From: Lachnospiraceae bacterium
GTDB taxonomy: Bacteria > Bacillota > Clostridia > Lachnospirales > Lachnospiraceae
Reading direction: 5' to 3'
Assembly (NCBI GenBank): GCA_046957575.1
Contig: JBKUOG010000003.1
Coordinates: 28,763 to 92,762, forward strand
DNA length: 64,000 nt
Part shown: piece after piece, positions 2,995 to 3,141 of the stretch
Numbering within the stretch: the stretch's first letter is position 1
How the letters are laid out: every line of letters begins with the position of its first letter
Notes under the pieces: generated by a model
Databases searched by the model: none
What the model was told of the DNA's origin: nothing
What the model saw: only the letters and a program-made list of their open reading frames with translations
Program-made: the position numbers and the translations under genes

Positions 2995-3141
2995 AACAGT
3001 TCAGCCATGCATCTTCTTGCCAGCTGTAAGCGTACAAGAAGCGTCTGGCATCAGCCCTATGAAGATTCAGACAGAAAAGCTCCTATGAAAACAAGCTTTC
3101 AACGCTTTTTCCTGTCTGAATCTTCGCATGGCTGAACTGTT
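2995..3141. repeat. Structured interspersed repeat, copy 1 (full length, 147 bp)
   Basis: Outer stem aacagttcagccatgc / gcatggctgaactgtt. Hairpin B is cttcttgc-cagctgtaagcgt-acaagaag. Hairpin A is gaagattcagacagaaaag / ctttttcctgtctgaatcttc. Homologous to 23306-23451, 27120-27266, 41335-41387 and 52365-52461. Overlaps the last 43 nt of the HD gene. Confidence 0.9.

Follow-up and report, generated by a model that had tools for sequence, protein, structure and literature searches.

Hairpin MITEs are known from several bacterial groups, among them Correia/NEMIS of Neisseria, ERIC of enterobacteria, RUP of the pneumococcus and bcr1 of the Bacillus cereus group, and the classical MITE families duplicate TA or 4-5 bp of their target. 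Fixed target-site duplications and terminal inverted repeats are hallmarks of DDE cut-and-paste or copy-and-paste transposition. They are absent from IS200/IS605 elements and from REPs, which are palindromes of ~35 bp without bounding terminal inverted repeats or target-site duplication. The insertion of MITEPsy1 in hopX1 is a case in which a gene 3'-end insertion creates a new protein C-terminus (PMC3189936). In the IS66 family, the terminal repeats have GTAA ends and include GTAAGCG... and GTAACCGTCCGGGCA (PMC12888890), the direct repeats are 8 bp long (PMC3281130), and ISDge4 carries the repeat GTAACTGCTCAGCA with an 8-bp direct repeat (PMC12898284).

The repeats described here were analysed in a window of 64,000 nucleotides of Lachnospiraceae DNA, the whole stretch under study. 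They resemble the classical MITEs (Correia/NEMIS, ERIC, RUP, bcr1 and MITEPsy1) in being ~100-200 bp long, non-coding and multicopy, in having terminal inverted repeats, target duplication and long hairpins, and in being intergenic and co-transcribed, but their ends differ, their duplication is 8 bp, the presumed transposase family is a different one and there is no sequence similarity. With MITEPsy1 they share the property of giving proteins new C-termini by 3'-end insertion (PMC3189936). We consider it likely that they are a 151-bp non-autonomous MITE of gut Lachnospiraceae, moved in trans by a putative ISBst12-type IS66 transposase. The MITE family is undescribed and part of a wider superfamily; it represents an ordinary type of element rather than a novel sort of system, and no match to it was found in the searched literature. 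An abundant repeat of human-gut Lachnospiraceae would thereby get a name and a mechanism.

The first-pass annotation had proposed five homologous plus-strand copies of a MITE-like repeat of ~147 bp with a 16-bp inverted repeat. Its 16-mer, searched at up to 3 mismatches, gave 8 matches in the window against 0.49 expected, a number that 0/100 shuffles reached, and all 8 fall on the five proposed copies. BLAST, multiple alignment and a covariance model agree on these five copies and no others in the window: three are full length, one is 5'-truncated and one internally deleted. The inverted repeat is real, but its length is 18 bp, as set by reading the flanks of many copies (GT-AACAG...CTGTT-AC), and the actual unit is 151 bp. 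The common orientation of the copies is true in the window but a local accident, the family-wide ratio being 21 antisense to 11 sense (p = 0.11, 32 sites) and 11 to 8 among the metagenome matches listed. The annotation had stated that no transposase gene lies nearby; a tblastn search with the Geobacillus transposase, which covers the IS66 type only, found no IS66-type transposase in the window. The copies and the parts of copy 1 are as follows.

2993..3143, plus strand: copy 1, full 151-bp MITE; the covariance model of the right module matches 3046-3143 with 96.9 bits
2993-3010, plus strand: left repeat of copy 1
3013-3041, plus strand: hairpin A of copy 1
3046-3057, plus strand: small GC hairpin of copy 1, followed by TAT at 3058-3060
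3061-3125, plus strand: long hairpin B of copy 1, with apical AACAAGCTTT
3126-3143, plus strand: right repeat of copy 1
2985..2992 (left, CAATTTTC) and 3144-3151 (right, CAAATTTC): target-site duplication of copy 1, 7/8 match
23304..23454, plus strand: copy 2, full length with degenerate ends
27118..27268, plus strand: copy 3, full length, with target-site duplication CCTGGAAA / TTTGGAAA
41335..41390, plus strand: copy 4, 5'-truncated right end, 32.8 bits with the covariance model
52363..52463, plus strand: copy 5, 71.1 bits with the covariance model, with target-site duplication ATATATAT / TAATATAT

Copy 2 carries matching C>T/G>A changes in both repeat arms. The insertion of copy 3 is shared by the loci L050 and L053 (95-96% identity to the window). 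What remains of copy 4 is the loop and the 3' arm of hairpin B with the right repeat only, and the gene-to-gene spacing around it is the same in 3/3 contigs that reach the downstream gene, the other two stopping 41 nt past ftsW; a look-up of its EPSP-synthase-like neighbour gave no record. Copy 5 sits between the divergent genes lgt and ychF and has lost 50 bp internally between two TCAGCC direct repeats, and an identical copy is found in L041, from the same species.

The 18-bp terminal inverted repeats of the 151-bp element (GTAACAGTTCAGCCATGC ... GCATGGCTGAACTGTTAC) are present at both ends of 56 full copies, and 92.6% of the cells of the helix they form are paired. The fold is much more stable than that of shuffled sequences on each of the two strands (-69.1 kcal/mol, z = -10.4, and -73.7 kcal/mol, z = -9.4). 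The sole ORF has 42 codons, starting from an ATG in the repeat; it is intact in 26/56 copies and missing from the other size classes of the element described below. A small protein gene was rejected on the grounds that this ORF is broken in about half of the copies. No Rfam match was obtained at gathering thresholds in the window, nor on the other size classes, and the E-value mode gave only weak, sub-threshold matches to microRNA hairpins. A known RNA family was therefore discarded, since no Rfam model matches, in agreement with the earlier remark that the repeat was not recognised as a named family.

The 56 full copies carry an 8-bp target-site duplication, with a mean match of 5.89 at the correct offset versus ~2.4 at shifted offsets; 20/56 duplications are perfect (8/8) and 39/56 match at 6 or more of the 8 positions. 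The first-pass annotation had advised a search for such duplications and for empty sites. The former were found to be 8 bp long and A/T-rich, and empty-site alleles, in which the target is present once, were found for copy 1. Alleles of this site were collected from other assemblies through its neighbour, a DUF1292 protein. The site is empty in L072, L076 and L077 and filled in the window, L073, L075, L078 and L079. In the empty allele (L072/L077) the single target reads GAACTTTG on the gene strand, and the HD hydrolase has 196 aa and ends in ...QGTLRKS*, whereas in the filled allele the protein has 207 aa and ends in ...QGNLVTVQPCEDSDRKKR*. The comparison of the two alleles thus shows that three codons were exchanged for fourteen element-encoded codons and a stop codon. 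Because of the inverted repeats, the duplication, the empty site and the presence of at least 71 copies in 12 species genomes, we conclude that the element is a MITE, as had been proposed. It is shorter than 300 bp, has no conserved coding capacity and is bounded by terminal inverted repeats and a fixed-length duplication, with presence/absence polymorphism.

In different species, independent insertions occupy differing positions of one operon or intergenic region. Deletion stubs of 24-49 bp, which keep little beyond the two repeats and are flanked by perfect or near-perfect 8-bp duplications, indicate that internal deletion across the palindrome is frequent. They are located as follows.

L045:~1266-1314, deletion stub
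L046:587-628, deletion stub
L017:~4990-5030, deletion stub
L064:~1670-1708, deletion stub
L015:~3704-3727, deletion stub
L049:~464-495, deletion stub
L007:~646-681, deletion stub

L050, ~96% identical to the window at the copy 2 site, was considered as a clean empty site for copy 2 and proved instead to be an internal-deletion remnant, in which ~137 bp are missing and ~6 nt of each end are kept. From the independent insertions, the stubs and L050 we therefore conclude that the element inserts, persists and decays by palindrome-mediated deletion.

Copies 1-4 had been described as lying at or near the stop codons of minus-strand genes, and these contexts hold.

3099-3722, minus strand: HD-hydrolase ORF, ending 45 nt inside copy 1
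3099..3143, minus strand: MITE-encoded C-terminal tail VTVQPCEDSDRKKR and stop codon of the HD hydrolase
23448-24896, minus strand: M20 peptidase ORF, with its stop codon (23448-23450) in the right repeat of copy 2
27224-28453, minus strand: CoaBC ORF, whose last 45 nt are copy 3 sequence, in the same frame as in the HD hydrolase
41398-42552, minus strand: FtsW/SpoVE ORF, with its stop codon 8 nt from copy 4
2892..2912, minus strand: native terminator-like hairpin of the HD-hydrolase gene, the only such site in 2700-3400, present in empty and filled alleles

Gene ends are reshaped by these insertions: two of the five copies in the window give a protein its last 14 residues and stop codon, and one of the two is polymorphic between close relatives. 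One reading frame of the repeat meets a TAA at once, and another a stop after 14 codons. The 3'-end bias also holds beyond the window. Among 32 independent co-directional sites, the upstream stop is nearer to the element than the next start in 24 (p = 0.007) and within 20 nt of it in 20, and the element contains the end of the ORF in 11; the median distance is 11 nt to the upstream stop versus 100 nt to the next ORF start, a conservative comparison since ORF starts were taken at the longest extension. The target, as deduced from 52 reconstructed sites, has an A-A-W-T-T core and a G+C content of at most 16%. The sequences are compatible with either targeting or survival after selection as the source of the bias. 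Two reasons are likely to explain why surviving copies accumulate at stop codons or immediately beyond them, namely that the A/T-rich target would be common there and that insertions would do little harm. The element would thus be co-transcribed in 3' untranslated regions and would occasionally replace the last residues of a protein. The copies could be used as strain-level markers.

When the 8-bp duplications are oriented by the element, the A-A-W-T-T core occupies positions 4-8, that is, off-centre and asymmetrically. Either noise or a target preference that depends on orientation may account for this.

The GTAA ends and the 8-bp duplication pointed to the IS66 family. On pHTA426, a Geobacillus plasmid, a single-ORF element encodes a transposase with DDE_Tnp_IS66 and zf-IS66 domains (218 bits) and has the repeat GTAACTATTCAGCCC and the duplication AACTCGTC. 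ISGst1 of pGS18 has the repeat GTAACTATTCAGCCA, which matches the MITE GTAACAGTTCAGCCA at 13/15 positions, and the duplication AAAAGAAC, and an IS66 copy of Bacillus thuringiensis has GTAACTACTCAGCTT and AATTTATC, respectively. Nine further relatives were recovered from IMG/VR viral contigs; 8/9 of their repeats begin with GTAAC, the left end of L217 being GTTAC, and their 8-bp duplications are perfect except in L216, where it is mismatched at the offset tested. The repeats of L212 (GTAACTGTTCAGCC) and L215 (GTAACAATTCAGCT) each match the MITE at 13/14 positions. Among the ISBst12-type elements with both ends paired, 11/12 begin with GTAAC and 11/12 have a perfect 8-bp duplication.

The contig that carries L215 (IMGVR_UViG_3300041964_000036) holds at ~1243-2949 a G+C-rich IS66-type element with a degenerate left repeat and the 8-bp duplication CGGCCTCG; the 13/14 match of its right repeat is to the common MITE variant GTAACAATTCAGCC.

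In five Geobacillus-type elements (pHTA426, ISGst1 and L211-L213) the right end has a GGGC...GCCC hairpin that encloses the stop codon, followed by TAT, another hairpin and then the repeat, and the left end has a hairpin sequestering the ribosome-binding site. The parts of the MITE stand in the same order as at the Geobacillus-type right end. This layout is not universal in the group, since the ORF of some ISBst12-type relatives extends into the repeat. The MITE is thus like the ISBst12 group (the ISGka4-like element of pHTA426, ISGst1 of pGS18 and ISDge4) in its GTAAC..TTCAGCC repeat, with up to 13/15 and 13/14 matches, and in its fixed 8-bp, often A/T-rich, target-site duplication, and like the Geobacillus subgroup in the right-end order of GC hairpin, TAT, second hairpin and repeat. 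It differs in lacking a transposase gene, in its size (151 bp versus ~1.6 kb) and in an interior that is not alignable above chance, and the IS ends examined show nothing like its long (~26-bp) hairpin with the conserved CAAGCT apical loop. Global alignment of the MITE interior with Bacillaceae IS ends was no better than with shuffled controls (z ~0), and the covariance model of the MITE right module gave non-significant scores on IS right ends. On these two results interior homology to IS ends is non-significant. The case for reading the MITE as IS ends is therefore built on its repeat, duplication and layout.

The MITE has GTAA ends that fit the ISBst12-type repeat consensus and the 8-bp duplication of IS66 elements. 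Judging from these sequence features, it is most probably mobilised by a single-ORF, ISBst12-type IS66 transposase of a presumed partner element. Such a DDE transposase would act in trans on termini that fit GTAAC..TTCAGCC and would leave the fixed 8-bp duplication. The layout of the MITE would correspond to the two non-coding ends of such an IS with the transposase gene removed, the left part being the repeat and a hairpin, and the right part the GC hairpin, TAT, the second hairpin and the repeat. The expected autonomous partner would be an element of ~1.6 kb bounded by GTAACAGTTCAGCC(ATGC) and an 8-bp duplication. The hosts of the MITE are Lachnospiraceae, and no matching autonomous copy was recovered from them. 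In 1.4 Mb of MITE-bearing loci no transposase gene is bounded by the exact MITE repeat, and neither a regex for the IS66 'CwAH-rR' motif nor tblastn with the Geobacillus transposase found anything in the MITE-bearing loci. No transposase with exact MITE ends occurs among the metagenome matches listed (at least 120 loci), and no match was found in viral contigs by exact-repeat scans or in plasmids and phages by blastn.

Several candidates for the partner were considered and rejected. Lone repeats in the loci, taken as possible partner ends, are deletion stubs or truncations. In L103, L106 and L109, widely spaced left and right repeats have ordinary genes between them, and all-against-all protein clustering of the loci, as a way to a multicopy transposase, returned only orthologous regions.

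With one genome taken per species, a pattern scan found at least 71 loci in 12 genomes, all of them Lachnospiraceae-like. Among the hosts are Lachnoclostridium and many metagenome-assembled genomes, one of them labelled Enterocloster bolteae; SRS15956990__bin80 has 23 loci, and one of its contigs is 99.4% identical to the window. A Bacillus-type repeat, which the gene content first suggested, was dismissed as the genome scan puts the element in Lachnospiraceae. The 71 genome loci were picked with a pattern that covers the loop and part of the repeat, so that conservation in those columns is built in. The metagenome set (at least 120 loci) was picked on the repeat alone and still shows the loop motif.

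Gut metagenomes contain at least five more size classes (169-204 bp) that have the 18-bp repeat at their ends. Among the metagenome matches listed, elements of 187-188 bp are the commonest, and sizes of 169, 178, 202 and 204 bp as well as some 151-bp copies are also found. Examples of the size classes, from the loci L082-L201, are given below.

L082:16-203, size-class example
L108:1312-1513, size-class example
L087:6479-6656, size-class example
L119:200-368, size-class example
L151:7746-7949, size-class example

The 8-bp duplication was seen in all of these other classes; among the matches listed it is perfect in 16/51 and matches at 7/8 positions in 8/51. The interiors of the classes are largely unrelated in sequence and follow one common plan, which from left to right is the repeat, a variable hairpin A, the GC hairpin (GGGCGTCCGCCC or GGCAGAGCGCC), (A)TAT(A/G), hairpin B and the repeat. 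In all six classes hairpin B is 60-65 nt long and has the apical (A/G)(A/G)CAAGCT(T/C) at a fixed position, and its arms are only 37% identical between classes. The right module has a near-constant length of 97-98 nt, and the GC hairpin and TAT are conserved across classes.

A unit of ~743 bp was observed in four metagenome loci (L083:~5300-6049, L096:484-~1226, L133:10709-~11451 and L172:1-576). It begins with the repeat and part of a hairpin of the 188 class, and another repeat-like site follows 321 bp from its start; the four may be repeated samples of a single locus, or the unit may be a larger relative that is likewise non-autonomous.

Assemblies were seen to break in the element at about one k-mer from its end: L205 and L206 stop 41 nt past ftsW, and in many metagenome loci the repeat lies ~52-55 nt from the contig end. 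The element family therefore systematically fragments short-read assemblies of gut Lachnospiraceae, and many metagenome assemblies are broken at its ends.

The structure of the element is supported by covariation well above the shuffled and slid controls. In the 151-bp family, 21 pairs are changed on both sides versus 9.0 +/- 1.8 in shuffles and 3-9 with partners slid. For hairpin B across classes, 89.7% of cells are paired versus 64.2% in the control, 198 cells are changed on both sides versus 69.8, these cell counts not being independent evolutionary events, and the covariation score is 0.644 versus 0.203 in shuffles and 0.08-0.14 when slid. Such strong covariation, together with a very stable fold and loop motifs that stay constant while the stems diverge, is also what would be expected if the element were primarily a structured RNA (a 3'-UTR stabiliser, a terminator or a small RNA) that spreads by its host-level function, with mobility secondary. 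Copies beside stop codons are probably co-transcribed: copy 1 sits between the end of the HD-hydrolase gene and its native terminator-like hairpin, which is downstream of it. In one count of the cells there is a slight excess of A.C over G.U (89 vs 56), which would favour a minus-sense RNA. The stems are ~87% Watson-Crick, however, and G.U and A.C are equally rare in them (18 vs 28), unlike in a strand-specific RNA, so that an attempt to assign the strand of the putative RNA from these counts gave no clear preference. Moreover, both orientations occur (21:11, and 11:8 among the metagenome matches listed), 10/44 sites are in divergent promoter regions, the element has no U-tract terminator or promoter signature (scan of 2700-3400), which also eliminated a promoter or terminator of its own, and it has no Rfam match at gathering thresholds. 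The empty alleles and the frequent decay by deletion show that single copies are dispensable. We therefore regard a primarily RNA-based element as unlikely, and the dedicated 3'-end RNA structure, terminator or stabiliser, that the earlier note had offered as an alternative is not supported, as the mismatches show no strand preference and there is no terminator signature. From the sequence data, a dedicated strand-specific RNA role is thus not supported, and in our reading the structure has been conserved by selection for mobility and acts in cis as part of the transposon ends. The hairpin architecture common to sequence-unrelated classes would most likely reflect end features that are needed for mobilisation. 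The natural mini-substrates, with their 18-bp repeat and conserved right module, define candidate cis-requirements for the poorly characterised transposition of the IS66 family. More tentatively, the right module might be a functional folded nucleic acid, either a single-stranded DNA or RNA structure for the IS66 transposase or an accessory or host factor, or a mobile RNA module co-opted by the host; we hold this to be a possibility with the odds clearly against it. The former, if true, would give the poorly understood IS66 family its first structural cis-requirement to be defined.

The near-complete Watson-Crick pairing and the lack of strand bias would also follow if the hairpins were unselected, their arms being kept by concerted evolution (fold-back synthesis, or mismatch correction in extruded hairpins) and the classes being independent fold-back derivatives. 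The identical changes in the repeat arms of copy 2 and the frequent palindrome-mediated deletions are in line with this. A neutral process would not, however, keep unpaired loops more constant than stems, and hairpin B has a constant length of 60-65 nt and a CAAGCT fixed in six classes whose arms are 37% identical, with the GC hairpin, TAT and the 97-98-nt right module also conserved. Neutral concerted evolution is therefore a lesser rival to selected cis-acting ends, and slightly less probable still than the structured RNA. The MITE resembles REP/BIME palindromes spread by a RAYT (IS200/IS605-like Y1) transposase in being an abundant, multicopy intergenic palindrome downstream of genes with a conserved hairpin structure, and it might be thought to depend on such an enzyme or on another hairpin-dependent single-strand transposon. 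It differs from them by its 18-bp terminal inverted repeats and fixed 8-bp target-site duplications, and its termini match IS66-family ends, which makes this explanation highly improbable.

Three further observations concern the positions of single copies. In an orthologous intergenic region, L002:2619-2769 and L007:3215-3365 are independent insertions that differ in position and orientation. In L002 the MITE separates a promoter-like TTGATA-17-TAGAAT from the downstream gene, and in L007 it abuts the upstream stop codon; an in-place inversion was considered for this pair and rejected, as the two insertions flank a promoter-like sequence on opposite sides. In the dcw cluster, a comparison of L001/L016 with the window regions 44925-45011 and 41257-41398 shows differing insertion sites: in the other species the MITE lies between a 322-aa gene, presumed by position to be mraY, and the gene upstream of it, and in the window it lies after ftsW. 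Four contigs of MGYG-HGUT-00650 end in GTAATGACTTTTGTCAAGAGGTAAACTGCAAAAATCACCACAA (L011:7229-7271, L065:2302-2344, L060:1-43 and L027:1-43). This sequence abuts the outer end of the MITE at one exact junction, beside either end, with no matching duplication on that side, and it looks like another GTAA-starting mobile element inserting at the MITE terminus.
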